A stretch of 64,000 bases of DNA from Malacoraja senta (GCA_038087875.1 CM075989.1:2294001-2358000), one strand, 5' to 3'. Positions 1 through 64,000 are shown, counted from the first letter of the stretch. The notes: a model not told the origin generated them from the letters alone. Numbers and translations are program-made.

Positions 1-217
1 CCAATTTCCGGTAGCCTTTGCTGTCTCCTCCCCTTCTCAGCTCTCCCTCAGCCCTCGGGCTCCTCCTCTTCCTTTTCTCTCCTTTCTTCTCTCCACCCCC
101 CCCCCCATTCCACCCCACATCAGTCTGAAGAAGGGTTTCGGCCCGAAACGTTGCCTATTTCCTTTGCTCCATAGATGCTGCTGCACCCGCTGAGTTTCTC
201 CAGCACTTTTGTCTACC
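1..217 (+). mobile_element. Penelope-like element 3' end (pseudo-LTR)
   Basis: Matches the sequence downstream of the GIY-YIG ORF at 19511-19720; contains CTGAAGAAGGGTTTCGGCCCGAAACGTT at 125-152. Confidence 0.8.
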
Positions 218-446
218 CGTCCATTGGCCCCCACCTTGAGATAGTGCCCCTACTGGTCACCCAGGGACTAGCTGGCCTTATTGGTTGATTGAATTGATTG
301 ATTGAAAGATACAGAATGGAAACAGACGTACGGCCAATCGATAACCTGTTCACTGTTTGAAGAAGGGTCTTGACCCGGACCGTCACCTCCTCTCCAGAGA
401 TTCTGCCTGATCCGCTGTTACTCCAGCATTTTGTGTCTATGTTTCG

Positions 447-834
447 CAGCGCTTCCACACCTCAACATTTTTTTTTTTCCTGAAATAGAATTCCAAATTA
501 CCTGGAATTTGATAGTATTTCCTGGCCCGGTAAGTTTCCCCAACTGCGCACGCGCGTATATCGGGCCCACTGCGTACATGCGGGGGATCGGCGTCCCTAC
601 CGCATCACCGGCACCGTTTGAATTGTAACGTGGCTGACGGGCCTCCCCCAACTGCGCACGTCGTAAATATACAGGTACATACTTTTTCCCGCAAATCATC
701 CCGCGGGCCTGATTGGACCCTTTGGCGTCTCCCTGCGCATGCGCAGTGGGCCCGGATTTCATTTCCCGAAAATTACCCGAAGGCAACCAGAATTTCCCGA
801 ATTTCAGGTAATTTCCTTCAAAGTGGAAACACTG
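447..834. mobile_element. hAT-like MITE (CpG-rich)
   Basis: Imperfect TIRs CAGCGCTTCCAC / GTGGAAACACTG; flanking 8-mers ATGTTTCG / ATCTTTAG match at 6 of 8 positions. Confidence 0.6.
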
Positions 835-959
835 ATCTTTAGTTCTATGTTAACACTTTCTCATCCACTCTTTACACACTGCAGGCAATTTTCAGAGGCC
901 AATTAACCTACAAACCCGCACGACTTTGTGATGTTGACCTGCGGAAGCGAGGGCGTTCC

Positions 960-1345
960 TACCCTACCCTCATCAACACAGCTGTTGTAGAGATAGTCAA
1001 CGGATTCAAGTTCTTGCGCATCCACATCTCCAGCCATCTAACCAGGTCCCTTCACACTGATGCAGTGATCAAGAAAGTGCATCAGCATTCTTACAGCATA
1101 TTTACAACATATTTAGATGGCTGAGGAGATTCGGCATGTCGATGAAGATTCTCTCGAACTTCAACGTTGTGCCAGAAAGAAAGTATACTGATGGGATGTA
1201 TCTTAGCCTGGTATGCCAACTGCTCTGCTCTTGTCCAAGAGTTTGGTGTACCTGCAGAAAGTGGTGAACACAGCCCGCTCCATCGCAGGCTCCTCACTTC
1301 ATCCCATGCCTGCCACCCCGGCCATTCCCTTTCTCTCTTCTACCT
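960..1345 (+). mobile_element. Old Rex1/Babar LINE 3' fragment
   Basis: Degenerate similarity to the Rex1 C-terminal region at 6930-7350 (FKFL..HIS, ESILMGCILAWY). Confidence 0.65.
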
Positions 1346-1369
1346 CCTGGGAGAATATACAGGCTTTAA

Positions 1370-5907: not shown

Positions 5908-5947
5908 CTACAATTTGAGATTTGTAATAGAAAAAATCACATTGTCA

Positions 5948-7573: not shown

Positions 7574-9976
7574 GTCAGATTTTAATCAAGGCAATTTTAT
7601 ATATATTTTGGTTTCACCATGTAGAAATTACAGCAGAAATTTCAGGGCACCATAATGTTTGGGACACAGCAATGTCATGTAAATGAAAGTAGTCATGTTT
7701 AGTATATTGTTGCTTATCCTTTGCATGCAATGACTGCTTGAAGTCTGCGATTCATGGACCTCACCAGTTGCTGGGTGTCTTCGCTGGTGATGCTCTGCCA
7801 GGCCTGTATTGCAGCCATTTTAGCTTGTGCTTGTTTTGGGGGCTAGTCCCCTTCAGTTTTCTCTTCAGCATATAAAAGGTATGCTCAATTGGGTTCAGAT
7901 CGGAAGATTTAATTGGGCACTCAAGAATTGACCATTTATTTGCTTTGAAAAACACCTTTGTTGTTTTAGCAGTTTGGGATCATTGTCTTGCTGTAGAATG
8001 AACCGCCGGCCAAAGAGTTTTGAAGCATTTGATTGAACTTGAGCAGATAGGATGTGTCTATACACTTCAGAATTCATTATGCTACTACCATCAGCAGTTG
8101 TATCATCAATGAAGATAAGTGAGCCAGTACATTCAGCAGCCATACATGCCCAGGCCATAACACCCCCACCACCGTGTTTCACAGATGAGGTGGTATGCTT
8201 AGGATCTTGGGCAGTTCCTTCTCTCCTCCATATTTTGCTCTTGCCATCATTCTGATATAAGTTAATCTTCGTCTCATCTGTCCACAAGATCTTTTTCCAG
8301 AACTGTAGTTATTCTTTTAAGTACTTCTTGGCAATCTTTAACCAGAAATCCTATTTTTGCGGCTAACCAGTGGTTTGCATCTTGCAGTGTAGCCTCTGTA
8401 TTTTTGTTCATGAAGTCTTCTGCAGACAGTGGTCATTGACAAATCCACACCTGACTCCTGACGATTGTTTCTGATCTGTCGGACTGGTGTTTGGGGATGT
8501 TTCTTTAATATAGAGAGAATTGTTCTGTCATCAGCTGTGGAGGTCTTCCTTGGCCTGCCAGTCCCTTTGCGATTAGTAAGCTCACCAGTGCTCTCTTTCT
8601 TCTTAATGATGTTCCAAGCAGTTGATTTTGGTAACCCTAAGGCTTGGCTATTGTCTCTAACAGTTTTATTCTTGTTTCTCTAGTCTCATAATGGCTTATT
8701 TGACTTTCATTGGCACAACTTTGGTCCTCATGTTGATAAACAGCAATAAAAGTTTCCAAAGTTGATGGAAAGACTGAAGGAAAGACTAGGTGCTGAGAGC
8801 TCTCTTATACCTGCATTAAGGAGGCAATTAAACACACCTGAGCAATTACAAAAACATGTGAAGCGATCTGTCCCAAACATTATGGTGCCCTGCAATGGGG
8901 GGGGACTATGTATAAACACAGCTGTAATTTCTACATGGCGAAACCAAAATGTATAAGAATACCCCTTAATAAAATCTGACAGTGCACTTTAACCACTTGT
9001 GATTTTTTTCTATTACAAATCTCAACTTGCGGAGTACAGAGGCAAATAAATAAATGATGTGTCCTTGTCCCAAACATTATGGAGGGCACTGTGTATCCTG
9101 AATGTTAGACATAAGGATCTAGCAACATTTAGCCATGGCATAGCTTAGAGAGATTGCCCAAAGAAACCACCCAGTGCACACCACAGGAATTCAATGTGTC
9201 TTTCCTTCCTTATCTCAATCAGCAAGTGATTAAAATCAAAGTTTCTGTTATCCCAACTCATCTCACTGATCATCTACACAATCTATTTTCCAAATGTCCA
9301 TTCACAGTTTCCGGCTATGCTACTAGTTTTAGGAGTGAGAATATGTGTAGTGGGGCTTGGCATATCAAGGGGTGGGGGATAGATACAGTGGACCAACAGT
9401 CATAGGCCTGATGGGGCAGGGAGTGAGGAGATCAGGGCTCCACCAACAATCTTCTGGGATGCCTAGAACCAGGTGGCAACCAAGCGGTGGATGCCTGAAC
9501 GTTAGAAGATGACATTTGCCTTAATAGTCATAGAACCTAGAACAGTACAGCACACGAACAAGCCCTTTGGCCCACAATGTCTGTGTCAACCATGATGCCA
9601 AGACCAACACTCATCTACCTGCGCACAATACCCATATCCATCCATTCCCTGCATATACAAGTGCCCACCCAAAAGTATTTTAGTCGCCACTAACATTTTT
9701 GCTGCAAACGCCACCTCCGGCACTCACCACCCTCTGTGTAAAAATCTTGCCCTGCAGATCTCCTTTAAACTTTGCCCATCTCACCTTAAAGGTGTGTGGT
9801 GGCCTCAGTTCAAGGTAATGGGAAACTATGGCTCAGACACTGCTCCATGCTGTGTTTTGAGGGGGTCCACTGTAGTTTTTGTTAAGTACATCGGATGCGA
9901 GGTTCACCAAATCCTGTTTCTCGTTTCCCTGTGCAACGCTTCACTAAAGCTGACATTGTGGATTTCAGGGTACTGT

Positions 9977-10090
9977 TCACATCTTCTTGCAGTTCTCATG
10001 ATTCATCACAGCAGCATCAATCGCTGCCGGGAGCTTGTCAAAGGGTACGCCATGTGTTAATAGCACTCTTGCCGTTACAGGATGTATTAC
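9977..10090 (-). pseudogene. Candidate last coding exon of an unidentified gene: VIHPVTARVLLTHGVPFDKLPAAIDAAVMNHENCKKM*
   Basis: Acceptor TTTGTTCAATAG followed by 37 open codons and TGA, in non-repeat DNA. Confidence 0.45.
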
Positions 10091-10264
10091 CTATTGAACA
10101 AATGGATTCTGGAGTGACGGAAAGGGGTGGGAGAGAGATCCCAAGAGACAAGGATAGTGAAGACCTGGGTATACTTGATGCGACCCACCTCCGAACTGAC
10201 CCGAAACATCATCTAACCATGTCCCCCGGAGATGCTGCTTGACCTGCTGAGTTACTCCAACATT

Positions 10265-10550
10265 ATGTTTAGAGATACAGCGTGGAAACAGGCCCTTTGG
10301 CCCATCGAGTCTGCTCCGACCAGTGATTCCCGCACACTGACACTAACTGACACACACTCAGGACAATTTATGATTTTACCAAGCCAATTACACAACAAAC
10401 GTAACGTCTTTGGAGTCTGGGAGGAAACTGGAGGGAAAACCCACGCAGGTCACGGGGAGAAGGTACAAACTGTACGCACAACACCCAGAGATCGAACCCG
10501 GGTCTCGAGCGCTGTGAGACAGCAACATTACCGCTGTGCCACCGTGCCGC
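10265..10550 (-). mobile_element. tRNA-derived V-SINE/HE1-like SINE
   Basis: Box B GGTTCGATC, central domain and CR1-like tail GGGCCTGTTTCCACGCTGTATCTCTAAA. Confidence 0.85.
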
Positions 10551-10689
10551 TCAATATCTGCATGGTAAATCAGCATTTGCAGTTCCTTGTGTCTCTACAC
10601 TGGAGGGGTGCTCTGTGCAAGGAGACCAGAGAGAACCTCCTGGGCTACAGCCAGGTGTTCCTGGGATGAAGGTACTGGGGAGAGCTATG

Positions 10690-11180
10690 TGTGTAACCTG
10701 TGAGGACATTGCAGGGGATATCGAGAGGTCAACTGAATGGGCAAAGACGATGCAAATGAGATATAATGTCAAAAAATGGGAGATCATTTCCTTTGTATGA
10801 AAAATGTGTAAGGTAGACTGTTTTTTTGAAACAGAGAGAGACTTGTACATATATTACTGAAAATCAATATGGGAGTTCAGCAGACAATCAGGAAGGCGAG
10901 CGGGAGGTTGGCTTTTTTTTGGCAAGAGGATTTGAGTACTAGAGTAGTGATGTTTGCTCCAATTATGTAATCTCTTGGTTAGCACCTGGAGGATTGTGTA
11001 TGAATGTAATCCCCGCAGGAACGATACACCAGCAGTGAAGATCCATCATATTGATCCCTGCCATGACAGACTTCTTGTATGAAGAGCGATTAGCAGACTG
11101 GCCTGATGCTCTCGTGAGTTTACAAAAATGAGACTTATCTCAATGAATCTTCAGAGGCTTAATGGAGCAGATGAAGATGT
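10690..11180 (+). mobile_element. Old, diverged CR1 fragment
   Basis: Degenerate L..WAK.MQM.YNV.K and downstream CR1 motifs. Confidence 0.7.
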
Positions 11181-12509
11181 AACACAAAAAACTGGAGTAA
11201 CTCAGCGGGTCAGGGAGCATCTCTGGAGTAAAGGAGAAGGTGTCGTTTCAGGTTGAGACCCTACTTCACAAGTCTGAAGAAGGGTCTCGACCCGAAGCAT
11301 CACCTATTCCTTTTCTCCAAAGATGCTGTCTGGCCCGATGTGTTACTCCACCTTTTGTGTCTATCTTCAGTTTGAATCAGCATCCGCATTTCCTTCCTAC
11401 AGATGAAGATGTGATATTTCTGCCAGCTGGGAGTCTTGTCAAGAGGTCTCGGTATGTGAATAAGGAATCGGTCAGTCATGCAAGAGATGGGAGGACATTT
11501 CTTCACCCAGAAGAAAGAGACTATTTGGAATCGTCCACTCCAAGAAGGGTTTGGAAGCTCAGAGGCAAAGTACATTGTTCTCTGGAATGACAGAGGTTGC
11601 AGAGAGACCTGAGAGAAATATATACAATTATGAGTGAAGACCGTCAGAATGGAATTTCTCAGAATGGAAACAATCAAATAACAGAGGGCGTTGTTTTAAG
11701 GTGAAAGGGGGAAAGTTTAAAGAGATGTAAAGAGCAAGTGTTTTACAAGCAGGGGTGGTGAATGTCTGGAACATGCAGCCAGAGGTGGTGGCTGAAACAA
11801 ATACGTTTGTTGCATTTTAAAGACTTTTGGATGAATGGATGGAATGGAGGGAAATATGTCATGTGCAGGTAGATAAGTGATGGTCTTGGCATCTTGTTTG
11901 GCACAGACATTGTGGGCCAAAGGGCCAGTTCTTGTACTATAGTGTTCTATGTACATATAAAACAGAGATTTACAGATTTTGGAAATTGAACGTGACATTG
12001 TAGATAATCAGCCGTGATCATGTTGAAATGCTTAAGAAGGAACTGCAGATTCTTGAACAGTCAAAGGTAGACAAAAATGCTGGAGGAACTCAGCGGGTGA
12101 GGCAGCATCTATGGAGAGAAGGAATAGGTGACGTTTCGGATCGAGGTCTCGTCGCCTATTCCTTCTGTCCATAGATGCTGCCTCACCCGCTGAGTTTCTC
12201 CAGCACTTTTGTCTTCCTGTGATCATGTTGAATGTTGGTGATCGCATGAAGGCTTACTCCTGCTTACTCCTGCTTCACTTTCATCTTCATATGTAAGGCT
12301 ATGAGTACAGTCTGGAAGCTTCCACTTTAAGGAAGCCTCCTGTGCAGGCAAATGCAAAATCTCCCCCCCCCCCCCCCCCCTCTGCCTCGTTCGACAGGCT
12401 GAGGATTAGTCTGTAGGGAGGAACTGCAGATGCTGGTTTTCACCGAAGATAGACACAAAATGCTGGAGTAATTCAACGGGACAGACAGCATCTCTGGAGA
12501 GAAGGAATG

Positions 12510-12540
12510 GGTGACGTTTCGGGTCGAGACCCTTCTTCAG
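12510..12540 (-). ncRNA. Minimal hammerhead ribozyme motif in a Penelope-derived repeat
   Basis: CUGAAGA-A-GGGU-CUCG-ACCC-GAAA-C-GUC: catalytic core boxes, stem II and a GUC triplet. Confidence 0.55.
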
Positions 12541-12814
12541 ACTTTGTTGCTGGTCGAGCCCTGTGACCAACTATATTTCTGGACTCGTGTTATTCTCAAA
12601 CTAAGGATCCAGAGACGCTGCCTGTCCCGCTGAGTTACTCCAGCAATTTGTATTTATCATTGAAGGGAAAATCTTCTCTCCTTGGCTGTGGAGTAATTCA
12701 ACAGTCAGCAGCAAACTGCAGTGATGTTGCTGAGATGCACAGTAGCAGTCCTGGAATAACACGATGCCAGGGAGCTGGAGTGACTGTGACCCTGACCTTC
12801 ACAAGCTAAGCACT

Positions 12815-12915: not shown

Positions 12916-12974
12916 CAAGTGTAAGTTAGGTTACTGGGAAACACAGGTCTCAGGTGAAGCAAAGAGCAGAGTTA

Positions 12975-14165: not shown

Positions 14166-16459
14166 TTAGATGGAACTGCAGTTGCTGGAATCTTGAGTGT
14201 AACACGATGTGCTGGGGTAACTCAGCAGGACAGGCAGCGTCTTTGTTTAGTTTAGAGATACCACGCGACACAGGCCCTTCGACCCACCAGGTGCGTGCCA
14301 TCCAGGGATTCCCCGTACACTAGCGCTATCCTACACACTAGGGACAATTTACAAACCTTACCAAAGCCAATAAACCTACAAACCAGGTACATCTTTGGAG
14401 TGTGGGAGATCTCAGAGAAAACCCACGCAGGTCATGGGGAAAATGTACAAACTCCGTACAGACAGCACCCGTAGTCAGGATCAAACCTGGGCCTCTACCG
14501 CTGCGCCACCATGTTGCCTGTATTCGTGAAAGGAGGGCAGGAAAGACACAAGGAACTGCAGATACTGGAATTGTTGGTTGTGTAAACAGCAGGATTAGGA
14601 GCTCAGTAAATGCTGGTTGTCCAGGGAGTAAACAAGAACTGGCAGTTTTCAGATCAATGTGGAAATTCACTGCAATCCAACTTTACATGTCTCACTGCCT
14701 TTGATGTACTTTTGCAGATTATATCGTGGGCAAAAGTGTGAAGGAGAATGAAAATCCAGTCGAATCAAAATTCTAATGGGTATAACAGCACACAGAAACG
14801 TGTAACATTTGCAGTGTTTGACTGCTATTTTCTGAGTGGTGTGAATGTCCATAAATTCAAAGAAGCAGAATAAGGCCATTCGGCCCATCAAGTTTACTCC
14901 GCCATTCAATCATGGCTGATCTACCTTTCCCTCTCAACACTATTCTCCAATGTGTTGGTGTTGGCCCTGCTATTTAGGTACAGAGGAGGATGGTGCTGTA
15001 GGTGGGGTCGTGCAGGATGTTGTTTCCAGGTGTCCTGGTGAGGGCTGTGGCCTTTACTGGAGCAACAGAGGGGACACTCAGTGCGTTACTGTAAGCAGTC
15101 TCGCAAAGGGTGCGGTACATGCGACGATCTCTCAAATCAGCTGAATGACCTGCAGTTTTTAGTCACTCATATTTCCCACTGACCTTGATTCAAACTGCAT
15201 TCAACTCAACTGATCGCCTGCCCGCTGGCTTCCCCCGCCTTGTACATGTCATCAGCTTTCTATCAAGACCAAACCTATCCCCCAAACCTGATGGAACAAG
15301 GATCTCTGAACACATTCTCAGCAGCCTAGGTCATCCGTGCTCTTTCTCCATGAGGCATTCAAAAACTTCTCACAGCCTTTAATAAGTTTCAAATCTTTCT
15401 CAAAGTGAAATCTATTGGAGCAAGTCTTTAGAAAGATCTAAGCAAGTCTTTTCTAATTCAGAAGCCGTGGGGAGAGATCTTAATCAGTTATTCTTAATTA
15501 ATGGGCTTCCTAAAGTGTTACACTGGTGTCACACAGCTATTTGGAGTGAGTTTCCACCAATTCTTGGGAAAGTTCCTTGTACCTCTGCAGACCGGAGCAA
15601 AATCATCTGGAGGATTAGGTTCGACCTAAAACGTCACCTATTCCTTCTCTCCATAGATGCTGCCTCACAAGCTGTGTTTCTCCAGCATTTTTGTCTACCT
15701 TGGAGGATTAACTTTGTAGGTGTTGAGCTACTGAGCCAAATGCCTGCTGCCTCTTTGATCTCCATGTGAATCTTAAATGTTAGTCTTCACCAGTACAGAC
15801 AGTGGAAGAATATTGAAACACGGAAAGCAACTTTGAAGAACTTCCACCTTACACTGCACTTCAGTTTGTACGTTCTCCCCGTGACCCGCGTGGGTTTTCT
15901 CCAAGATCTTCGGTTTCCTCCCACATTCCAAAGATGTACAGGTTTGTAGGTTAATTGGCTTGGTAAATGTAAATATTTACCTAGTGGGTGTAGGATAGTG
16001 TTAATATGCGGGGATTGCTGCTCGGCGCGGACCCGGTGGGCCAAAAGGGCCTGATTCCGCGATGTATCTCTAAACTATAAATTAGCACTGCAAAAATCCA
16101 GGCCAAAATCCCCCCAAAACATAATGCTCCCTTCAAGGAGTAGGCGGAACAGTAGAGTTGTTGCCTCACAGCACCAGAGATCCAGGTTCGATCCTGACTA
16201 ACGGGTGCTGTCTGCACGGAGTTTGCACATTCTCCCTGTGACCGCGTGGGTTTTCTCCGAGTCCTCCAGTTTCCTCCCACTCTCCAAAGACGTGCAGGTT
16301 TGTAGATTAATTGGCTTCTGTGAATTGTCCCTAGTGTGTTGGATGGAACCAATGAACGGGTGATCGCAACTACTGACAGCAACTTTTAAGGACTTCCACC
16401 TTGGACTGCCTGAAGTTGTAACATTTTCACAAACTAGTAAGACTAACACATATGGTACT

Positions 16460-16551
16460 GGTAGACAAAAATGCTGGAGAAACTCAGCGGGTGAGGCAGC
16501 ATCCATAGATGCTGCCTCACCCGCTGAGTTTCTCCAGCATTTTTGTCTACC
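16460..16551. repeat. Perfect 44-bp inverted repeat formed from Penelope termini
   Basis: 16460-16503 is the exact reverse complement of 16508-16551; loop CATA. Confidence 0.9.
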
Positions 16552-17180
16552 TTCGATTTTCCAGCATCTGCAGTTCCTTCTTAAACATATGACACTGGTT
16601 TTGCTGTCATTACGACTGCAGAAATCCAGGCCAATATAAAAAAAAAGACATATTCCCTCCCAGGAGATGTGAGCCATTTCTGGATTTGGACCATCAAGAT
16701 GGGGAAATAGGAAGCCACAGCTTTGTACAGTGAGTTCAACCTGTGAGTATTCAATAACTCAGCGGGGCAGGCAGCATCTCTGGAGAGAAGGAATGGGTGA
16801 CGTTTCGGGTTGAGACCCTTCTTCAGACTAGTTAGTGAAAAGGGAAACGAGAGATATCGACGATGATGTAGAGAGATAAAGAACAATGTAAGAAAGATAT
16901 GCAAAAGAGTAACGATGATAATGGAAACAGGCCGTTGTTAGCTGTTTGTTTGGTGAAAATGAGAACTTGGTGCGACTTGGGTGGGGAAGGGACAGAGAGA
17001 GAGGGAATGCCGGGGCTGCTGACGTTAGATAAATCAATATTCATACTACTGGGCTGTAAGCTGCCCAAAGTAGAAGACATGTTGAAAAATTGTGTCCATT
17101 CATGGCAATTGACTGATGCACAGACTGTGGATCAGCCTTTCAGCATGTGTTAGAATGGACTGGAGATCATTCCCAGTCAC

Positions 17181-17239: not shown

Positions 17240-17539
17240 CTGCAGCAATTGGAAATATTGTAGGAAGAAACTGCAGATGCTGGTTTAAACTGAAGATAGA
17301 CACAAAATGCTGGAGTAACTCAGTGGGACAGGCAGCATGTTTGGAGAGAAGGAATGGGTGACGTCTGAAGAAGGGTCTTGACCCGAAACATCAGCCATTC
17401 CTTCTCTCCAGAGATGCTGCCTGTCCCGCTGAGTTACTCCAGCATTATGTGTCTATCTTCAGCAATTGGAGAAACCTTGGTAAACCTGCGATATTCATTG
17501 TCAATTCACAATGAGGACCAGGATGCAGGCATGAGGTAC

Positions 17540-18453: not shown

Positions 18454-18454
18454 A

Positions 18455-19720
18455 TACCCATGGCTATCAGGACTACACTTCTTCCCACCCTGCTTACTGT
18501 AAGGACTCCATCCCCTACTCCTAATTCCTCCGTCTATGCCACATCTGCACCCAGGATGAGGTTTTCCACACCAGGGCACGGAGATGTCCTCATTCTTCAG
18601 GGAACGGGGGTTCCCCTCTTCTACTATAGATGAGGCTCTCACCAGGGTCTCTTCTATACCCCGTAACTCTGCTCTCACTCCCCATCCCCCCACTCGTAAC
18701 AATGTCCTCACCTTCCACCCTACCAGCCATCACATACAACAAATAATCCTCCAACATTTTCGCCACCTACAACGGGATCCCACCACTGGCCACATTTTCC
18801 CATCTCCTTCCCTGTCTGCTTTCCGTAGAGACCACTCCCTCCGTACCTCCCTGGTCAATTTGTCCCTTCCCACCCGAACCACCCTCTCTCCCACCTCCAT
18901 CGACTCATTTAGGTCAAGACTAAAAACTTATATATACTCCCAAGTCTTTCTTGACATCCTCTGAGCGAGGGCTATATGTATATATGTATGTAGTTTGTTT
19001 GTTTATATTATTTCCTATAACAAATGTAAAGCACTTTGGCCAACGAGAGTTGTTTTTTAAATGTGCTATATAAATAAATGTGACTTGACTTGAATGTGAC
19101 TCTCCGGGCACTTTCCCTTGCAACTGCAGGAAATGCTACACTTGTCGCTTTACCTCCCCCCTTGACTCCATTCAAGGATCTAAGCAGTCTTTCCAGGTGT
19201 GGCATGGGTTGACCTGCACCTCCTCCAACCTCATCTATTGCATCCGCTGCTCTAGGTGTCAGCTGCTCTACATCGGTGAGACCAAGCGCAGGCTTGGCGA
19301 TCGCTTCGCCCAACACCTCCGCTCGGTCCGCAATAACAAACTTGATCTCCCGGTGGCTCAGCACTTCAACTCCCCCTCCCATTCCGAATCTGATCTTTCT
19401 GTCCTGGGCCTTCTCCATGGCCAGTGTGAGGCCCACCGTAAATTGGAGGAGCAGCACCTCATATTTCGCTTGGGCAGTTTGCACCCCAGCGGTATGAACA
19501 TTGACTTCTCTAATTTCAGGTAGTCCCTGCTTTCTCCTCCCCTTCTCAGCTCTCCCTCAGCCCACTGTCTCCGCCTCTTCCTTTCTTCTTCCCACCCGCC
19601 CCCCCTCCCCCCCACCCTCACATCAGTCTGAAGAATTGTTTCGACCCGAAATGTCGCCTATTTCCTTCGCTCCATAGATGCTGCCTCACCCACTGAGTTT
19701 CTCCAGCATTTTTGTCTACC
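18455..19720 (+). mobile_element. Penelope-like element (RT C-terminus, GIY-YIG endonuclease, pseudo-LTR) interrupted by an L2 tail at ~18893-19095
   Basis: MSSFFRERGFP; TCTSSNLIYCIRC..C.LLYIGET.RRL..RF..H; VAQHFN; G.N terminus. Confidence 0.92.
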
Positions 19721-19893
19721 TTAGTTGTTTAGGAGTATGACATTTAAGAATATTTGTTTTAGGTAATTGGGTGATTTTGTATTATTTTGGTGGGTTTGTT
19801 CGGTATTGATTTGTATTGTATATATTATTGCAATCATTGATTATATTTATTTTTTAACCCCCCCATTTCCGTAACCGGCTTCCGTCTCCGCAC

Positions 19894-31335: not shown

Positions 31336-31345
31336 CACACACACA

Positions 31346-43780: not shown

Positions 43781-44369
43781 TGTAGCATGTTTTAAATCAA
43801 CTCGCTTTATATAAAATAAATAATATATATTTATATATTACAGCTCGCAACAAAAGCTTTTCACTGTACCTCGATCCACGTGGCAATAAACTAAACTCAA
43901 CTCGACTACAAAGTCCATGGACCCACACATATTGCTAAATGAGATTGTCTACTTTTATGCTTTTATTTATAATTAGGAGATTAATATTGACCTTATGTCA
44001 CTTTATTCATGCATTCTGTCCATAAACAAAGCAACCTGTGATAGTAATCAGACCCGTGGGGCCAGTACCAACAGCAGCGTCGAGTACAATTGCAGTGCAA
44101 TCATTATCTCACGCCCAATGTTTGGAAATGTTCTCCTCCATCACTCCTTTGTTAAACTAGACAAGATTCATTTTAAATACCTATTCCTGGTCCCCCATCT
44201 TCACACACAGTAAGTGTTAAAATCACCCTGAAGACAATGAGGCAGTCATTATATTCAGTGACCATAAAGCCAGCAAATGTCTTGCAAATGTCCATTAACA
44301 CCTTAGACTAATCATCAATAATGAGACCACGTCAAGGAACCTTACGTCCTATCCATCAGCACTGGCATC

Positions 44370-45595
44370 AGCACACCATCCTAATTGACCATCTCCGGTA
44401 TGGGGTTGGTATTGATGGCACTGCCCTAAGCTGGTTCATCTCCTACCTCAAAGGTAGGAGTTTCTCGACTAACATAGGCAACTCTTTCTCCTCCCCAGCT
44501 AATCGCTGCTGTGGGGTTCCACAAGGTTTCATCCTTGGCCCCATTCTCTTCTCCCTGTATATGCTCCCCTTAGGCCAAGTCATTGAAAGGCACGGCATTT
44601 CCTTCCATTGCTACGCAGACGATACACAACTCTATCTCCCACTGAAGCCCAAAAACCAATCAAATCTGTTTAACCTTACCCACTGCCTCGAGGATATAAA
44701 GTGTTGGATGGCCCAGATCTTCCTCCAACTAAATAAGAGTAAGTCTGAGGTCATCCTTCTCGGCCCCTCGGACTCAATCAAAATGATAACAGGCAGCCTT
44801 GGAAGCCTTACCGCACTACTCAAACCTCATGTCAAAAACCTTGGCGTGATATTTGACTCAGCACTGAAATTTGACAAACAAGTCAATGCCGTGGTAAAAG
44901 CTAGCTTCTTTCAGCTTCGGACGATAGCTAAAATAAAACAATTCCTCCAGTTTGATGACCTCGAAAAGATCATCCACACATTCATCTCCTCCCACCTAGA
45001 TTACTGCAACTCCCTTTACACTGGCATCAGCCAATCTTCCCTGTCCCGCCTGCAACTGGTCCAAAACGCCGCAGCGAGACTCCTGACGGGCACCCGAAAA
45101 AGGGACCACATCACCCCGATCCTGGCCTCTCTCCACTGGCTCCCTGTGCGGTTCCGTATAAACTTCAAGATCCTCCTCCATGTCTACAAAGCCCTCAATG
45201 GGCTTGCCCCCACCTACATAAAAAGTCTTCTCACCCACCACTCCACCTCCAGGCCCCTCAGATCGGCCGACTTGGGGTTGCTGAATATCCCACGGTCTAG
45301 GCATAAGCTCAGGGGCGGCCGCGCCTTTGCGGTTGCAGCTCCTAGACTGTGGAACAGCATCCCCTTTCCCATCAGAACTGCCCCCTCCATCGACTCTTTT
45401 AAGTCAAGACTAAAGACTTATCTATACTCCCAAGCCTTTCCTGACGTCCTCTGAGTGAGGGCTACATGTATATATGTATGTAGTTTGTTTTGTTTGTGCT
45501 ATTCTTATAACAAATGTAAAGCACTTTGGCCAACGAGAGTTGTTTTTTAAATGTGCTATATAAATAAATGTGACTTGACTTGACTTGACTTGACT
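44370..45595 (+). mobile_element. L2 LINE, 5'-truncated RT
   Basis: GVPQG.ILGP.LF, HCYADDTQLY, DYCNSL, LQLVQNAAARLL, LHWLPV; (TGACT)n tail. Confidence 0.95.
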
Positions 45596-46309
45596 TTGCA
45601 TCATGAAATAATACTGAAGTGAGACTTGAATGTCATAGGATATTGATTTTTTTCATGCTGAAGAAGGGTCTCAACCCGAAACGTCACCCATTCCTTCTCT
45701 CCATAGATGCTGCCCGTCCCGCTGAGTAATTCCATATTTTTCTGTCCATCTTTGGTTTAAACCAGCATCTGCAGTTCCTTCCTACACATGTTTTCATATT
45801 TATGATGGCAAAGTTGCAAAATAAAGCTTTAATGGATAGAACATGGAACAGTTCAGCACAGTAACAGGCCCTTCCGCCCACAATGTCTGTTTCCAACAAG
45901 ATGTCTGGACCAACCCTTATCTGCCTGCACATAATCCATATCCATCCAATCCCTGCATATCCATGTGCCTATTCGGAAGTCTCTTAATCATCACTATCAT
46001 ATGTATCTCCCCCACAACCCCAGGCAGTGCGTTCCTGGCACCCACCACCCTCTGAATAAGAAACCTGCCCCGTGGGGTCAGTGGCGCAGCGGTAGTGTTG
46101 CTGCCTCACAGCGTCAGAGACCCGGGTTCAATCCTGACTACAGATGCTGTCGGTACGGAATTGGTACATTCTCCCCTGACCAGCGTAGGTTTTCTCCGGG
46201 ATCTTCAGTTTCCTCACACACTCCAAAGACGTAGGTTAATTGGCTTGATATAAATGTTAAATTATCCCCAGTGTGTGTAGGATAGTGTTAGTGCGGGGTG
46301 GGAGATTGC

Positions 46310-48688: not shown

Positions 48689-50282
48689 CAGTGCCCTCCA
48701 TAATGTTTGGAACAAAGACCCATCATTTATTTATTTGTACTCCACAATTTGAGATTTGTAATAGAAAAAATCACATGTGGTTTAAGTGCACATTGTCAGA
48801 TTTTAATAAAGGCCATTTTTATACATTTTGGTTTCACCATGTAGAAATTACAGCTGTGTTTATACATGGTCCCCCTATTTCAGGGCACCATAATGTTTGG
48901 GACACATGGATTCACAGGTGTTTGTAATTGCTCAGGTGTGTTTAATTGCCTCCTTAATGCAGGTATAAGAGAGCTCTCAGCACCTAGTCTTTCCTTCAGT
49001 CTTTCCATCAACTTTGGAAACTTTTATTGCTGTTTATCAACATGAGGACCAAAGTTGTGCCAATGAAAGTCAAAGAAGCCATTATGAGACTGAGAAACAA
49101 GAATAACACTGTTAGAGACATTAGCCAAGCCTAAGGCTTACCAAAATTAAGAAGAAAGAGAGCACTGGTGAGCTTACTAATCGCAAAGCGACTGGCAGGC
49201 CAAGGAAGACCTCCACAGCTGATGACAGAAGAATTCTCTCGAAAATATCAGAAACACTCTTCAGGAGTCAGGCGTGGATTTGTCAATAGCCACTGTCCGC
49301 AGAAGACTTCATGAACAGAAATACAGAGGCTACACTGCAAGATGCAAACCACTGATTAGCCGCAAAAATAAGATTGCCGGGTTACAGTTTGCCAAGAAGT
49401 ACTTAAAAGAGCAACCGCAGTTCTGGAAAAGGTCTTGTGGACAGATGAGATGAAGATGGACTTATATCAGAGTGATGGCAAGAGCAAAGTATGGAGGAGA
49501 GAAGGAACTGCCCAAGATCCTAAGCATACCTCCTCATCTGTGAAACACGGTGGTGGGGGTGTTATGGTCTGGGCATGTATGGCTATTGAAGGTACTGGCT
49601 CACTTATCTTCATTGATGATACAACTGCTGATAGTAGTAGCATAATGAATTCTGAAGTGTATAGACACATCCTATCTGCTCAAGTTCAAACAAATGCTTC
49701 AAAACTCATTGGCCGGTGGTACATTCTACAGCAGGACAATGATCCCAAACATATTGCTAAAGCAACAAAGGAGTTTTTCAAAGCTAAAAAAGGGTCAATT
49801 CTTGAGTGGCCAAGTCAATCACCCGAATTGAACCCAATTGAGCATGCCTTTTATATGCTGCAGAGAAAACTGAAGGGGACTAGCCCCCAAAACAAGCACA
49901 AGCTAAAATGGCTGCAATACAGGCCTGGCAGAGCATCACCAGCGAAGACACCCAGCAACTGGTGATGTCCATGAATCGCAGACTTCAAGCAGTCATTGCA
50001 TGCAAAGGATATGCAACAAAATACTAAACATGACTACTTTCATTTACATGACATTACTGTCTCCCAAACATTATGGTGCCGTGAAATGGGGGGACTATGT
50101 TCTCTCTAAACACTAGTGTAATTTCTACATGGTGAAACTAAAGTGTATAAAAATGTTTTTAATTAAAATCTGACAATGTGCACTTTAGCCACATATGATT
50201 TTTTCTATCTCAAATCTCAAAATCTCAAATTGTGGAGTACAGAGGCAAATAAATAAATGATGGGTCATTAGGGAGGGCACTG
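48689..50282 (+). mobile_element. Tc1 transposon copy 2, near full length, defective transposase
   Basis: TA TSD; CAGTGCCCTCC TIRs with internal direct repeat CATAATGTTTGG; ATG at 49042; WTDE, QQDNDPKH, SPELNPIEH. Confidence 0.95.
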
Positions 50283-53475: not shown

Positions 53476-55768
53476 TCCATGATCATAATTTTTTTGAAGG
53501 GAAAAAGGGAAACATTGCTACCCAATATGTCCTCTGAGTTACCCTGACTTGGAAATCTGTCTTCTGTTGAGTTGAGTTGAGTTTAGTTTATTGCCACATG
53601 TACCGAGGTGAAAAGTTTTGTTGTGTGCAGTGGAAAGGCAATACATGATTACAATCGAGCCATTCGCAGTGTACAGATACATGATAAAGGGAATAACACG
53701 AATGACGAATAGGCCAAGATAAAGTCCAGAAAAGTCTGTTCAAAGATAGTTCAAGAGTTTCCATTGAGGTAGAAATTAACTCAGGACTGCTCTTTAGTTG
53801 TTGGTAGGATGGTTGTTTTAGAGATATAGCATAGAACTGGCCCTTCAGTTCATCGAGTCAATGCCGACCAGTGATCACCTGTTCACACTAGTTCTATGGG
53901 GATCATGACAGAAGCCTCCTCGTGGCGATCCCCGGAAACGACAACGCGATGCACTCAGTGACGCATCGGGCGACCAATTCTGTCAACATGTTGGACGACG
54001 ACGGAAGCCAACGACGAGCTATGCATCATCTGACACACGAGCGAACGAACTAGTTCCAGATTATCCCGCTTTCCCATTCATTTCTTGCACACTAGGGACA
54101 ATTTGTCAAGGCTAATTTAGATCTAGTTTAAAGATACAGTATGGTAAAAGGCTCTTCAGCCCACCAAATCCACGCTGACCATCCATCTTCAGCTCACATT
54201 AGTTCCTCACTACACACTCGAGGCAATTTACACAGGTCCAATTAACATACAAATCTGCACGTCTTTGGGATTTTTCGAGGAGATCGGAGCACCGGGAGGA
54301 AACCCACATGGTCATGGGGAGAACATGCACACTCCACACTGACAGCAGCCGAGGTCAGGATCGATCCCGGCTCTCTGGCGCTGTGAGGCAGCAGCTCTAC
54401 CAGCTGCGCCACCGTACCGCCCCCACGTTGCAGGCATGAAATCCTGAAACTCTCCATCTTGACAACTCCAGTAATAGTTTCAGTACCTAGATATGGTTGA
54501 AGGTAGCAGTTTATTAACGCTGTCTCAAATGCTGGTCTTGCCCGTTGGAAGCCACGTCATGGTCAATACCAGGTCAATGAATGGTATTCACATATCGTGT
54601 ACTATGTGTATCAGTCCACATGGAAGAATACCCAATCAGTTTTCACACCCAAAGGGGAAAGGGGAGCGCATGGAAATTAAGATGAAATTCAGAGACAGAG
54701 CATTGTTGTTCATTGTGGTAGCTCTGGATTGAGGCCGTGGTGTATCGCCATGACGAGTGTTCCTGAAGAGTGAAGAGTGAGGAGTGAAGAGAGCCACAGC
54801 AAGAGATGGAGGAATAGTATTCATTGTCATCAATGTGGCAACGTACAAATAAAGACAGAATGGACTCGGTGGGCTGAAGGGCCTGTTTCTCCAAACTAAG
54901 CTACCCAGCTCTGGATTAGTGGCCGACTAATTAGTTTTTCAATTCACTGACAGTGTGATTGTCAACCAAAACACTGCTTAAACATGACTCAAATGTTGCT
55001 GTCTGAACAATCTCACACACTGGTAGAATTCATCCCTCTGCCCAAACAATTACTTTATCGTACAGCTCACAGGTGGCTTAGCGGGGCAGCGGGTAGAGCT
55101 GCTGTCCCCCAGCACCAGAGACCAGGGTTCCAACCTGACCTCAGGTCCTGCCCGTGTGGGGTTTGCACGTTCTCCCTGAGATGCGTGGGTTTCCTCCGGG
55201 TGCTCCGGTTTCCTCCCACATCACAAAGGCGTGCGGGTTTGTAGGTTAATTGGCCTCTGTAAATTGCCCCTAGTGTGTAGAGTGGAGGAGAAAGCAAGAT
55301 AACATGGATCGATGGTTGGCATGGACTCAGTGGGCTGAAAGTCCAGTTTCTATGCTGTATCTGTTAACTAAAATGATCACAGGAGCTTCTAAAATGTGCA
55401 ATCATGCTTCAGGCAAATGCATGTGGGGCGCAAGGCCAAATGAAGACTCCTCAGAGGGCAAAGAATATATTTGGACATCATTCAGTCATCATTTTAAGAC
55501 GATACATTTCATCCTTGTGTTCACATAATTGCTGAGAGATAAGAAAAAGTATCTTCCAATTTCTGTTCCATCTCTGACAATATTTACAGTTTGGATCAGG
55601 ATGTCCACAGAAATGACACATTATGATTGCATTCTGAGCTTGTATGTGCTGAGACAGAGCCACTCACCCAGCTGGCTGCTAAATAATGGAAAACAATTTA
55701 TACCAAGTTAGACACAGACTGCTGGAGCAATTCAGCGGGAGAGGCAGCATCTCTGGATAGAAGGAATG

Positions 55769-55799
55769 GGTGACGTTTCGGGTCGAGACCCTTCTTCAG
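55769..55799 (-). ncRNA. Minimal hammerhead ribozyme motif in a Penelope-derived repeat
   Basis: Identical to the motif at 12510-12540. Confidence 0.55.
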
Positions 55800-56511
55800 A
55801 CTGAGAGTCAGTGTAAACCAGCATCTGCAGTTCCTTCCTACACAATTTATAACAAGTGTTCCCGATTCCCACAAAACCACACAACAGATCACCAGTGTAA
55901 GAGGAATCGTCTGTGAATGAGGTGGGTAGTACTGAAGCACGGAGAAGAAACATCCAAGAATTGAACTTGTAAAGGAGTGCCAGATGGCCAACAATATAAT
56001 TTTTTATTACCGAAGCTTCAAAGAGATAAATAGCATTGTAGAATTGATATGAACAAATTATTCTTCATGTCAAAAACACACAAGTAATATCTCCCCTCAG
56101 ATGAGGCAGTGAAGGTTCAAAACAGGAACAGATTGATTGAAACATACAGCATGGAAACAGGCCTTTCGGCCTACAGAGTCCACACCGACCATCGATCACC
56201 TGTTCACAATAGTTCCATGTTATCCCACTTTCTCATCCACTCCCTACACACTGCGGGCAATTTACAGAGGCCAATTAACTTACAAACCCGCACGTCTTTG
56301 GGATGTGGGAGGAAACTGGAGCACCTGGAGGAAACCCATGTGGTCACCTGGAAAATGTGCAAATTCTACACATACAACACGCAAGGTTAGGATTGAACAC
56401 AGGTCTCTTATTCCTTGGAGTGCAGGAGGCTGAGGGGTGATCTTATGGAGGTGTACAAGATCATGAGGGGTTTACCCGAAGTAGGGGAATCAAGAACCAG
56501 AGGACATAGAA

Positions 56512-59854: not shown

Positions 59855-60490
59855 ACAATAGACAATAGACAATAGGTACAGGAATAGGCCATTCGGCCCT
59901 TCGAGTCAGCACCGCCATTCAATGTGATCATGGCTGATCATCCACAATCAGTACCCAGTCCCTGCCTTCTCCCCATATCCCCTGACTCCGCTCTCTTTAT
60001 GAGCCCTATATAGCTCTCTCTTGAAAGTATCCAGAGAACCGGCCTCCACCGCCCTCTGAAGCAGAGAATTTCAAGACTCACAACTCTCTGTGTGAAAAAG
60101 TGTTTCTTCTTCTCCGTTTTAAATGGATTACCCCTTATTCTTAAACTGTGTGTGGCCCCTGGTTCTGGACACCCCCAACATCGGGAACATGTTTCCTGCC
60201 TCTAGCATGTCCAAACCCTTAATAATCTTACATGTTTCAATAAGATGCCCTCTCATCCTTCTAAACTCCAGAGTATACAAGCCCTGCCTCTCAGCATATG
60301 ACAGTCCCGCCATCATGGGAATTAACCTTGTGAACCTACGCTGCACTCCCTCAATAGCAAGAATGTCCTTCCTCAAATTAGGGGACCAAAACTGCACACA
60401 AGACTCCAGGTGTGGTCTCACTAGGGCCCTGTACAACTTCAGAAGGACCTCTTTGCTCCTATACGCAACTCCTCTTGTTATCAAGGCCAA
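59855..60490 (-). mobile_element. CR1 3' fragment
   Basis: RPHLESCVQFWSP; (ACAATAG)n tail on +. Confidence 0.9.
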
Positions 60491-61789
60491 TATACGGTTT
60501 CTATGGACTTTGTTCGAGCATAAGGAACAATTAGTCACACGGCACAATGGGTGACTAACTCCAAGTCATATTTATTGTTTACCAACAATGTTCCATCTAC
60601 CACTGTCATGTGCAGCAGAGCTCTATACATGCAGCAGGAGGAGAGAATTAGTCTTTTCATCGAGTTTAACTTCACTGTTGATTCCTTCCTGTTGTGATTG
60701 ATAGTACAGGTGGGTGCCTTACCCATTGGAGTATTCTCCTTTACACAATGAACAATTAATTGATGAAGCAGAGTACTTATGTAAATGAAATTTCTAATCC
60801 AACTCATCAATTGGACTGGATTTAAATCGGTGCCAGGAGCTTTAGGTCTTTAGGCAGTCTATTAATATTTGACTTTATTGTGCTGGAGGTTGCCTCAGCT
60901 CAATGTCACTATCACAAGTGAACATTGTGTACTAATCTGGACAACACGGGTTACAAATTGTACCAAGCAGCGTCATAAACTTAATCTAAAACGTGGTCTC
61001 TGCAATGACTTGCCATACTTCGGAAATGTAATCATAGCCCTCCGTGCCAATGGCAGTTTTATGCCAGGAGATACTGGGCACATTTGAGTGGTGCCAGTCA
61101 GTAGTTTGATTCCCAGTGCAGGTGGCATTGGTGCTGACTGATCCCTGCTGCGAAGATAGGCACAAAATGCTGGAGTAACTCAGCGGGACAGGCAGCATCT
61201 CTGGATAGAGGGAATGGGTGACATTTCGGGTCCAGACCCTTCTGAGTCTGAAGAAGGGTCTCCACCCAAAGCGTCACACATGCCTTCTCTCCAGAGATGC
61301 TGCCTGTCCCACTGAGTTACTCCATGTGTGATTTTATGTCTAACTTTGTGTTTTATTGTCATATGTCACAGCCAGAACAATGACATTCTTACTTGCAGCA
61401 GCACAACAGAATATGTAAACATAGTTATTCTGTAAACAATGTCATAAACAACCACAAAATGTCAGTATATATAGGCAATCAAGAACTAGAGAACATAGGT
61501 TTAAGGTGAGAGCGCAAAGATTTCACAGGAACCTGAAGGACAACGTTTCCACACGGACAGTGGTAGGTATATGGAATGAGCTGCCAGAGGAGGTAGTTGG
61601 GACACATTTAAAAGACATTTGGACAGGTACCTGAGAGGAAAGAGTTAGAGGGATTATGCATCAGATGGGACGAGCTTAGATAAGCGTTTTGTCGGCATGA
61701 GGGCCTGCTTTTGTGCTGTATGGCTCCAGACTCCATTGCTTGTACACCTTTTTGTGATGTTCTTACCTCCCTCCAACAGCTGCTGATTC

Positions 61790-62572
61790 CTTGTGGGGCT
61801 GCAGTGTGTGGGCCTGTAGTGTGTGGGGCTGTAGTGTGTGGGGCTGCTATATGTGGGCCTGTAGTGTGTGGTCCTGTAGTGTGTGGGGCTGTAGTGTGTG
61901 GGGCTGCTATATGTGGGCCTGTAGTGTGTGGGGCTGCTATATGTGGGCCTGTAGTGTGTGGGCCTGTAGTGTGTGGGGCTGTAGTGTGTGGGCCTGTAGT
62001 GTGTGGGCCTGTAGTGTGTGGGGCTGCTATATGTGGGCCTGTAGTGTGTGGGGCTGTAGTGTGTGGGCCTGTAGTGTGTGGGCCTGTAGTGTGTGGGGCT
62101 GTAGTGTGTGGGGCTGTAGTGTGTGGGGCTGTAGTGTGTGGGCCTGTAGTATGTGGGGCTGTAGTGTGTGGGGCTGTAGTGTGTGGGGCTGCTATATGTG
62201 GGCCTGTAGTGTGTGGGCCTGTAGTGTGTGGGGCTGCTATATGTGGGCCTGTAGTGTGTGGGCCTGTAGTGTGTGGGCCTGTAGTGTGTGGGGCTGCTAT
62301 ATGTGGGCCTGTAGTGTGTGGGCCTGTAGTGTGTGGGGCTGTAGTGTGTGGGGCTGTAGTGTGTGGGCCTGTAGTATGTGGGGCTGTAGTGTGTGGGGCT
62401 GTAGTGTGTGGGGCTGCTATATGTGGGCCTGTAGTGTGTGGGCCTGTAGTGTGTGGGGCTGCTATATGTGGGCCTGTAGTGTGTGGGGCTGTAGTGTGTG
62501 GGCCTGTAATATGTGGGCCTGTAGTGTGTGGGCCTGTAGTGTGTGGGCCTATAGTATGTGGGGCTGCAGTAT
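61790..62572. repeat. 15-bp minisatellite (~52 units)
   Basis: Units GTAGTGTGTGGG(C/G)CT with the variant GCTATATGTGGGCCT. Confidence 0.97.
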
Positions 62573-64000
62573 GATACCAGCAAAAATCACCTCTCACATT
62601 CACAGTATCGACCCTTTTGCTTAGTGGATGGTCCTGCTAGGATATCTTCTAGGATAGAATGACACATTGGTGCAGCTGGTAGAGCTGCTGTCTCACAGTG
62701 CCAGAGACCTGGGTTCAATCCTGAACTCGGATGCTGTTGGTGTGGAGTTTGCACGTTCTCCCTGTGACTGCGTGGGTTTTCTCTGGGTGATCCGGTTTCC
62801 TCCTACATCCCAAAGATGTTTTGTTTAGATTAGTTTACTTCAGTTTAGAGTCACAGTGCGGACACAGGCAGTGAAAGAGGGTCGCACAGAATACCCGGCG
62901 GAGAGGAGGAGAACTTCTTTCAGGTAGGCACACCTTGAGGAGATTTCACAGTGAAACAGTAATATGTAGACACAGAACTGCAGCCGAAAGGTATAGGAAG
63001 GAACTGCAAATGCTGGTTTAAATCGAAGATAGACGCAACGTGCTGGAGTAACTCAGTGGGACAGGCAGCATCTCTGGATAGGAAGAATGGGTGAAGTTTC
63101 TTCAGACTGAAGAATGATCTTGACCCAAAACGTCAACCATTCCTTCTCTCCAGAGATGCTGCCTGTCCCGCTGAGTTACTCCAGAACTTTGTGTATATCT
63201 CACCGAACGGCAGATACTGGTTCACAAAAGAAATCTGGGATTGTAAATTATAACACGAGCAATATTGGCTACGTTACTGTATGTGCATTTCTATGTCGTG
63301 CCCGCAGGGCCTAATATAAAACTGAGGCCTGTCATCACCTCCAGCTCCACTTCAAGACTTATCTACATCCATCTAACATCAAAGCAAGTTATATTATGCC
63401 TCGACAATTACAGCTGTGAACATTTATATGTATACAGTATCAGCTACAAGAATTAATCACCGGAATAGTCCTCTCTTTGAAAGTTCAGCTGAATAAGTAC
63501 TCTTATTAATTCAACCCGAAGTCTTTGAATCAATAATGGTTTTATTTCCACACTGTGCATGAACAAGTAGCCCTTGATGAAATAAATGTTTCTCGATCCT
63601 TTGATATATAAAACAACAAAGTTGAAATCACATTATTTTTCCCACAATGAGCATATTTAAACAGAAACGTGATGACACGAGGGACTGCAGACGCTATCTA
63701 GTGGTAACCTGGTTACCACCGTAGCCGGTACCTGCCTCTGCCCCTCAGGTTACTCTTCCACCTGTTTCATAGCCGAGTGTTTGGCTTCATAGGCAGCACC
63801 TATCTCCGACTGACTGTGTCGGAAGGAGCTGAAGGTGCTGGTTTAAACCGAAGATGGACACAATGAGCTGGAGTAACTCAACGGGACAGGCAGCATCTCT
63901 GGCGAGGAGGAATGGGTGACGTTTCGGGTCAAAGGGTCTCTCGCTGAAAGGTCGCCCATTCCTTCTCTCCAGAGATGCTGCCTCTCCCGCTGAGTTACTC

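Follow-up and report, generated by a model that had tools for sequence, protein, structure and literature searches.

Why does a short stretch of skate DNA contain so many copies of what looks like a hammerhead ribozyme? We analyzed 64,000 nucleotides (nt) from Malacoraja senta (GCA_038087875.1, CM075989.1:2294001-2358000; hereafter, the window). An original prediction, made from the sequence alone, had noticed a recurring hammerhead motif here, both in the ends of Penelope elements and in short copies without open reading frames (ORFs), and proposed that a ribozyme-bearing, non-autonomous family had amplified and could cleave host pre-mRNA. Our analysis points elsewhere. Most probably, the motif belongs to the pseudo-long terminal repeat (pLTR) end of a Neptune-type Penelope-like element (PLE), whose parents carry a selected, minimal hammerhead; the short copies would be dead on arrival, decaying neutrally, and unlikely to cut host RNA.

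The repetition itself is beyond chance. A search of the whole window for the hammerhead pattern with up to 3 mismatches gave 18 matches, as compared to 0 in 100 dinucleotide shuffles. Five matches are exact (at 125, 12540, 16826, 45658, and 55799), and all 13 of the sites that had been cited are present, within a few bases. The motif lies within a repeated module of 98-134 nt. Using a profile built from 16 of the window's copies, we found 47 hits for the module, which cover 4339 bases (6.8% of the window); five reversed or shuffled controls gave 0 hits. The hits show no strand bias (26 on the + strand and 21 on the - strand). After merging 9 clear head-to-head pairs, 1 probable pair, and 1 tandem, and removing 1 doubtful hit (the weakest, at 46138, E = 0.009), there are about 35 insertions. 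"More than a dozen copies" was right about the high copy number but was an undercount.

We number the module from the A that lies three bases 5' of the first box (CTGAAGA). The first box is then at 4-10, the bulged A at 11, stem II at 12-15 with 20-23, GAAA at 24-27, the palindrome at 28-29, U at 30, and H at 31; the first 3' end is at about base 98, and a tail continues until about base 134. Few copies are undamaged. The core is intact in 5 of the 47 hits, and the core, stem II, and stem I are all kept in four of these (122, 12543, 16829, and 55802). The copy at 45658, which had been called intact, does have an intact core but has lost the 5' strand of stem I, and the motif reported at 36015-36044 is present but has a U-U mismatch within stem II (36018-36045). 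The loop of stem II varies as described (CTCG, TTCG, CTCA, and CTTG), but CTCA and CTTG are the products expected from CpG deamination of CTCG, and TTCG is tied to one subfamily group.

Five of the hits (122, 16829, 19625, 21514, and 36048) have PLE sequence upstream of the module. In these long copies it extends for 120 to over 1000 nt, and the longest PLE copy is about 1.1-1.3 kb. The window contains no full-length PLE, so the "full" Penelope ends are really 5'-truncated copies or are cut by the window edge. Also, the motif at 16797-16827 had been listed as a short, ORF-less copy, but it has about 230 nt of PLE 3' untranslated region (UTR) and the last GIY-YIG codons upstream.

The frame at 19089-19523 (+) encodes a GIY-YIG endonuclease (PF01541, E = 4e-5, 24.2 bits versus a cut-off of 22.6), which is preceded by a C-x4-C-x2-C linker. 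A CX2-5CxxC linker before the endonuclease is a mark of Neptune and Nematis PLEs (PMC8557442; here and below, we cite published sources for the parts that were accessible to us). Among the matches listed (41 of 185 candidates), the proteins nearest to this endonuclease are from two skates (78% and 74%), followed by rays and sharks. The motif sits 105 and 109 nt 3' of the stop of the endonuclease frame. These features indicate that the parent is an endonuclease-bearing, Neptune-type PLE of skate-like fish and that the module is its pLTR end.

The module also contains an ATG, at base 53. It is a candidate ORF start: the frame that follows is open in some copies and has a stop in 4 of the 10 tail-bearing copies and in one doubtful hit; in the commonest subfamily, it is closed by a stop inside the tail. 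Two other features of the PLE sequence in the window are worth recording. The PLE copy at 18457-19722 contains a 215-nt 3' end of a long interspersed nuclear element (LINE) at 18888-19101, which matches 45378-45590 and is 91% identical to the end of a reverse transcriptase frame at 44312-45454. A third type of UTR, at 37545-37635 and beside an assembly gap, ends in just the first module bases; the copy at 55802 agrees with it in its 8 extra bases.

Is the motif a genuine hammerhead? It equals the published consensus of the metazoan minimal type I hammerhead (PMC4209133), so its identification as the minimal hammerhead of PLE pLTRs, with a palindromic stem III, holds up. It has all of the diagnostic features: CUGANGA (CUGAAGA in both) with one unpaired base, the bulged A; the G10.1-C11.1 pair that closes stem II; GAAA; the palindromic 15.2/16.2; and U and H, which gives GAAA-C-G-U-H without a stem III of its own. 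By published standards both stems are short: stem I has 2 bp and stem II 4 bp, near the lower limit of the lengths reported. Stem I had been described as weak, and it does have just 2 pairs, but helices I of 2 bp are also listed in the published alignment (PMC4209133) and both of these pairs covary, as follows.

We identified 26 metagenome loci with a related endonuclease; the best ones match at 39-48% over most of the domain. A descriptor scan of these loci found the same motif at 11 sites (12 rows), as compared to 0-1 in each of 20 shuffles. Seven of the 11 sites lie 114-215 nt past the end of the protein match (in loci L003, L006, L007, L010, L014, L016, and L017); the others are L004:633, L011:534, L012:723, and L020:1181. 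This metagenome PLE family has the same minimal hammerhead with a 3-bp stem I, and it has short separate copies too. In a gap-free alignment of the distant family's rows with six window copies, all 11 core bases are identical, versus 8 of the 25 loop and flank columns (Fisher p = 0.00015). Four of the 7 stem pairs (two in stem II and both in stem I) show two-sided changes, and all four remain pairs across the families; none of 500 shuffles reached this score. At the position of the distant family's third stem I pair, the window copies have an A-C mismatch. This comparison indicates that the hammerhead, including its 2-bp stem I, is real and is under selection in the parent elements.

As to covariation, which the original prediction had proposed to test across genome-wide copies, 4/7 pairs change on both sides relative to the distant family, but no pair does so among 15 copies in the window. 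The proposed covariance-model check gave nothing: there is no hammerhead among 17 Rfam matches at E up to 1, which would be expected if the Rfam models need stem III. The exact motif had 0 hits in viral contigs and 0 hits in metagenome contigs. A search of genome contigs gave one weak bacterial match, which we did not use.

If the short copies were a family of their own, then they should be related to each other rather than to the long copies. Instead, long and short copies interleave in a phylogenetic tree (37 of the 47 hits, 98 columns), and a tree that forces them apart is rejected (p-AU 0.000115). Each group of the tree has long copies among the short ones, with 5 changes for the 5 long rows, and the long copy 122 pairs with the short copy 37922 (96% identical). 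The short copies thus appear to be the products of several parent subfamilies and not a separate non-autonomous family.

If the short copies were maintained as ribozymes, then their cores should decay more slowly than their flanks. We counted private changes relative to the group majority in 32 of the 47 hits, which form three subfamily groups (in the 9-copy group, we excluded 9 columns that differ between sub-lineages). At non-CpG positions, 11/248 core bases have changed, versus 119/1849 downstream (p = 0.26); for the inner core, the count is 8/115 (p = 0.84). CpG changes are also similar in the core (21/114) and outside it (24/116, p = 0.74), and 35 of the 45 are C>T or G>A. Inserted copies decay neutrally, with no sparing of the core relative to the flanks. 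A core no better kept than its flanks is half of what the original prediction had named as evidence against itself.

The ends of the copies also look like those of PLE insertions. The 3' ends fall into two groups, with 23/47 at model positions 92-113 (where the aligner runs on into the flanks) and 17/47 at 123-135; none end at 114-122, and 7 are shorter. The tail is on a single arm in 8 of the 9 clear head-to-head pairs (in one of these, the window stops before the second arm is complete), and the two arms carry the same subfamily letters wherever they can be read. Target duplications of at least 11 matches flank 6 of 28 events, as compared to 1 of 255 mismatched controls. Several more events have shorter abutting matches, and the remainder have no standout duplication.

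A tail, an adjacent inverted truncated copy, and a target-site duplication are the hallmarks of PLE insertions (PMC3846280, PMC8557442), and all three are present in the window copies. The likeness to the insertion units of endonuclease-positive PLEs in those papers extends to an optional tail of about 36 nt on one arm of a head-to-head pair, duplications of 10-16 bp, and strong 5' truncation. In contrast to those units, the copies here are mostly the 98-134 nt module alone, with a sharp 5' edge before the hammerhead that we did not find in the accessible parts of those papers.

Some individual insertions show further detail. In the pairs 17363, 35806, 55802, and 63105, the tail-less arm reaches bases 1-3 and the tailed arm starts at 27, 21, 98, and 24, respectively, which may record the order of two priming events; the pair 11271 is an exception to the tail-less arm being the longer-reaching one. 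The arms of the pair at 35701-35906 share private changes and are sisters in the tree (97/94), which suggests one divergent template or conversion between the arms. At 37922-37949, the 13 filler bases between the duplication and the short copy form a small hairpin with the end of the duplication. The fold-backs at 12085-12199, 17319-17434, 35774-35868, 63050-63174, and 63871-63998 gave sub-threshold matches to Rfam microRNA models.

Several points weigh against reading the short copies as decaying products of a Neptune-type parent. We did not find a PLE reverse transcriptase domain in the window's truncated copies, so the clade placement rests on the linker and the endonuclease. The covariation compares two lineages only. 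The tree is mostly unresolved (3 of 34 branches are starred), draws on a subset of the hits, and is compatible with several small non-autonomous masters, one per subfamily. The decay test also uses a subset of hits, and the first box alone is slightly better kept (3/133, p = 0.06, borderline), a figure biased by the position of the box at the edge of the alignment, where trimming removes mutated copies. Finally, 22 of the 28 events are without a strong target duplication.

What sets the sharp 5' edge of the short copies? The first box is included in 21 of the 47 hits (5 long and 16 short). Among these 16 short hits, 14 start at module bases 1-4 (0-3 bases ahead of the box), and the other two carry 3-8 more; none of the 16 resembles the UTRs that lie further upstream in the long copies. 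The other 26 hits start at bases 5-98, and none of the 47 starts at bases 30-40, the region of the cut site. The same edge is seen beyond the window. In contigs of two public runs that match the long copy 36048 (stretch 35930-36330), the loose ends on this side with the most support among the rows listed fall on base 1 (623 contigs in X1 and 81 in X15) and on base 2 (567 and 72), with unlike flanks. Also among the rows listed is a further loose end at base -2, which resembles another subfamily's UTR. For three of the four rows at bases 1 and 2, the first loose letter of the consensus is G when read on the element strand, versus 1 of 116 for the other letters (these are consensus letters, not counts). 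Of the 5 window copies that start at base 1 without a UTR, 3 have one G in front of it (2 of 4 independent ones), which by itself is not significant.

A plausible reading, which we would stop just short of calling probable, is that the element's RNA has its 5' end at module base 1, the A ahead of the first box, and that priming 98-134 nt inside it runs off the capped 5' end, often adding a G. This adds to the explanation above, and the insertions would be strong-stop-like. It would account for the 14/16 short hits that begin at bases 1-4 while long copies run on, for the lack of starts near the cut site, and for the loose ends and their G. In the long copies, the edge has the context TC-A-GT, and TCAGT is initiator-like; however, one of the five has CT-A-GT and one is without the A. 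An extra G marks cap copying in full-length L1 insertions (PMC11702581), and an initiator-like TCACT has been noted in a rotifer pLTR (PMC3846280). On the other hand, the excess of G in the window might be chance, and in D. virilis the RNA starts some 120 nt further upstream, and an intron lies in between (PMC2377424, PMC4209133). The profile itself begins at base 1, and other types of upstream UTR could escape it.

Rather more doubtful, but far from negligible, is that the edge comes from a polymerase stop before a pyrimidine- or C-rich tract, from endonuclease cutting of an intermediate, or from a 3' splice site. Four of the five long copies have a pyrimidine tract and AG ahead of the box, and in some, a donor-like GT lies where the frame ends. 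In D. virilis, the intron runs up to the 5' end of helix I (PMC4209133), and resolution by the endonuclease has been proposed for the PLE tail (PMC8557442). But spliced templates should bring an upstream exon, which the short copies are without; none of the joints listed (15 of 102) skips 36047-36157; and the edge retains the A and the G that splicing would remove. An added G is left unexplained.

We set aside some related data. In the metagenome family, 3 of 4 short copies start within 10 nt before the box, but we did not count this as support because the copies were picked for an intact box. In the raw-read runs X22 and X23, 15 and 10 partial reads matched, and we found no such element in them. 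We did not use depth proxies, which are not copy numbers: in X1, the module has 1.7-1.8 x 10^7 and the endonuclease end has 0.9-1.1 x 10^7, so short copies would be less in excess than they are in the window, and in X15 (whose RNA label is guessed) the ratio is about 4-fold.

Building on the capped start, we suggest, tentatively, that most insertions in this lineage could be strong-stop-like. Priming would occur 98 or 134 nt inside a capped RNA that opens exactly with helix I; the product would include copies of the uncut ribozyme and of the cap, and this would often happen from both target ends, giving fold-backs with one tail.

The steps can be sketched by analogy to PAc, a Poseidon PLE of Anolis, which has two internal priming sites and extends both target strands and whose hammerhead needs protein (PMC11167929). 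The GIY-YIG endonuclease would nick the target, and reverse transcription would begin inside the RNA at about base 98 or about base 134, with the latter giving the optional tail, and would usually stop early. Extension of both target ends would produce a head-to-head insertion with the tail on one arm. The template would be uncut RNA, and the short copies would lose a downstream protein-binding stretch. In the parent, the hammerhead may cleave only as a dimer or with the element's protein, and its role may be to free units from tandem transcripts, as has been proposed. The capped start at base 1 and the cap-derived G are our own addition and are the step that we are least sure of.

We consider it improbable that the short copies are a separate, ribozyme-bearing family that arose from short masters and that cleaves host pre-mRNA. 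Their common start and their ends do resemble a defined unit, short hits outnumber long ones by 42 to 5, and four hits retain the core and both stems. Pieces of the module can also re-amplify: the composite copies at 10077-10336 (+) and 21042-21294 (-) are 79% identical and have the same layout (about 120 nt of unknown sequence, module bases 19-90 with no first box, and then the first part of a common short repeat). The tree joins them as sisters (95/94), so part of the module was multiplied again in another setting.

Besides the equal decay, the missing two-sided changes, and the rejected long/short split, the predicted folds argue against such a family. When folded in context, stem II has a pair probability of at most 0.15 in 18 of 20 cases, and stem I is near 0 because the first box pairs with bases past the cut site. 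Overlapping head-to-head arms fold into hairpins of -91 to -140 kcal/mol. Folding z-scores for six stretches gave no signal (-0.81 to 0.39). No intact partner on the same strand adjoins any of the hits that keep the core and the stems. In all subfamilies, module bases 11-15 can pair with 32-36, in a helix that competes with the 5' strand of stem II and is a possible "off" fold. The commonest subfamily differences past the cut site (A/G at 32 and C/T at 35) both preserve this helix, a weak signal because both differences are transitions.

The anole element argues against a separate family as well: its protein depends on 172 nt of ORF that lie past the priming sites at which the short copies end, and no anole RNA reads began or ended at the cut site (PMC11167929). 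A search for host exons (108 of 162 non-repeated frames of at least 55 amino acids, plus 12 chosen ones) found mobile-element domains or sub-threshold hits only, although such a search is blind to short exons or to a purely intronic window. With just 4/47 hits intact, no partner on the same strand, a disfavored fold, no strand bias, and no host exon detected, it is unlikely that inserted copies cut host RNA, as had been proposed.

We give almost no credence to a non-LTR retrozyme, mobile as circular RNA, with these copies as its monomers: a pLTR origin has been proposed for retrozymes, and they were detected in one cartilaginous fish (bioRxiv 10.64898/2026.07.22.740005), but the window has no tandem array of the module (at least two complete-hammerhead units in tandem), its lone direct tandem is a 37-nt duplication with two broken cores, and no copy is circularly permuted or starts at the cut site.

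It's useful to compare these copies to the closest known systems. As in the metazoan PLEs with minimal hammerheads (Cervera and De la Pena 2014, PMC4209133), the motif is located in a pLTR and is tied to truncated PLEs; that work reports about 4,000 such motifs in coelacanth and about 9,000 in frog, with most of them single and some on opposite strands. We found no cartilaginous fish in the part of its supplement that we covered or by a word search. Those hammerheads showed no cleavage as monomers and weak cleavage as dimers (PMC4209133). Dimer cleavage was also reported by Lunse et al., as cited in PMC6765202, and 1 of 9 frog dimers cleaved in another study (bioRxiv 10.64898/2026.07.22.740005).

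Poseidon PAc (Frangieh et al. 2024, PMC11167929) shares with our copies two internal priming sites, about 100-135 nt past the start of the hammerhead, that set the ends of copies, as well as extension of both target strands. In contrast, it belongs to another PLE clade, and its ORF begins within the hammerhead, whereas here the frame from the base-53 ATG is closed in the tail of the commonest subfamily. Non-LTR retrozymes (PMC7229834; bioRxiv 10.64898/2026.07.22.740005) are similarly short and non-coding, with a type I hammerhead and a link to pLTRs, but theirs are tandem arrays with mostly canonical hammerheads and circular expression, and ours are dispersed or inverted, minimal, and unpermuted at the cut site. 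We found no report of PLE hammerheads in elasmobranchs or of the sharp edge, in a search that largely left out subscription papers and repeat databases.

Table 1. Long and short copies of the module in the window, with the evidence for each where given.
Feature	Position	Strand	Evidence
Long PLE end truncated by the window edge; has 3' UTR and hammerhead 125-152 (intact), stops at first 3' site, no tail	1-217	+	
5'-truncated PLE: linker, GIY-YIG frame (19089-19523), UTR, degenerate hammerhead 19628; LINE-like piece ~18888-19101	18457-19722	+	
GIY-YIG endonuclease frame with C-x4-C-x2-C linker, Neptune/Nematis type	19089-19523	+	PF01541; skate proteins
5'-truncated PLE, GIY-YIG end; module type is the commonest type in short copies	21419-22006	-	
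5'-truncated PLE, GIY-YIG end; hammerhead 36018-36045 with U-U mismatch in stem II	35955-37019	-	
Long copy; UTR longer and of another type, final GIY-YIG codons; hammerhead 16799-16826 intact	16753-17075	-	
Short copy from module base 1, tailed; intact hammerhead 12513-12540	12412-12543	-	
Short copy from module base 4, tailed; intact core 45658-45685, no stem I; abutting 8/9 duplication	45658-45788	+	
Head-to-head: (-) arm without tail, hammerhead 55772-55799 intact; (+) arm of tail only; 15/16 target duplication	55703-55844		
Head-to-head pair; one arm tailed; 14/15 target duplication	11180-11400		
Head-to-head pair; one arm tailed; 15/16 target duplication; both arms without first box	12033-12214		
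Head-to-head pair; one arm tailed; no hammerhead bases at all	16460-16587		
Head-to-head pair; one arm tailed; 13/14 target duplication	17259-17461		
Head-to-head pair, degenerate; one arm tailed	35701-35906		
Head-to-head pair, tail-less; single G between arms ahead of module base 1	61152-61345		
Head-to-head pair; one arm tailed	62991-63200		
Head-to-head pair truncated by the window end	63815-64000		
Only direct tandem: 37-nt core duplication, both cores mutated; 11/12 target duplication, one G, module base 1	26769-26893	+	
Short copy, 96% identical to module of long copy 122; 14/14 target duplication, 13 filler bases	37826-37922	-	
Degenerate short solo copy	355-444	+	profile hit
Degenerate short solo copy	15605-15701	+	profile hit
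Degenerate short solo copy	27049-27142	-	profile hit
Degenerate short solo copy	29450-29548	-	profile hit
Degenerate short solo copy	30990-31081	-	profile hit
Short solo copy; CpG transition in stem III palindrome	34967-35062	+	
Short solo copy without first box	38013-38093	+	profile hit
Other partial hits	10198, 12607, 14245, 21190, 29242, 34062, 41030-41412, 59733		profile hits

The window has a few other features. Weak matches to ribozymes like that of hepatitis delta virus (HDV) at 20862-20966 (CPEB3, 25.5 bits, E = 0.018; HDV-F-prausnitzii, 26.9 bits) are below the gathering scores and lie inside a short interspersed repeat, and they are likely due to chance. A 15-bp minisatellite at 61792-62570 has 52 copies, with several frames open, and is unrelated to the PLE. 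Fragments of DDE (Tc1-like) transposases are at 7895-8308 and 49372-49965; only the second passes Pfam's DDE_3.

As a ribozyme finding, this locus is ordinary: minimal hammerheads on truncated PLEs are known by the thousand in fish, coelacanth, and frog. It adds a skate-type example, in which a 2-bp stem I is backed by covariation, and a dense record of insertion ends. The dense fold-backs may also generate double-stranded RNA and mislead microRNA prediction. Should the 5' edge mark a capped RNA start, then a single count across the genome could serve as a test of PLE priming and of whether ribozyme cleavage precedes reverse transcription. If the strong-stop reading is true, then the stubs would preserve, like fossils, the start site and both priming sites at single-base resolution, with uncleaved sense RNA as the template, and this would bear on the purpose of the PLE hammerhead and on the origin of inverted pLTRs.

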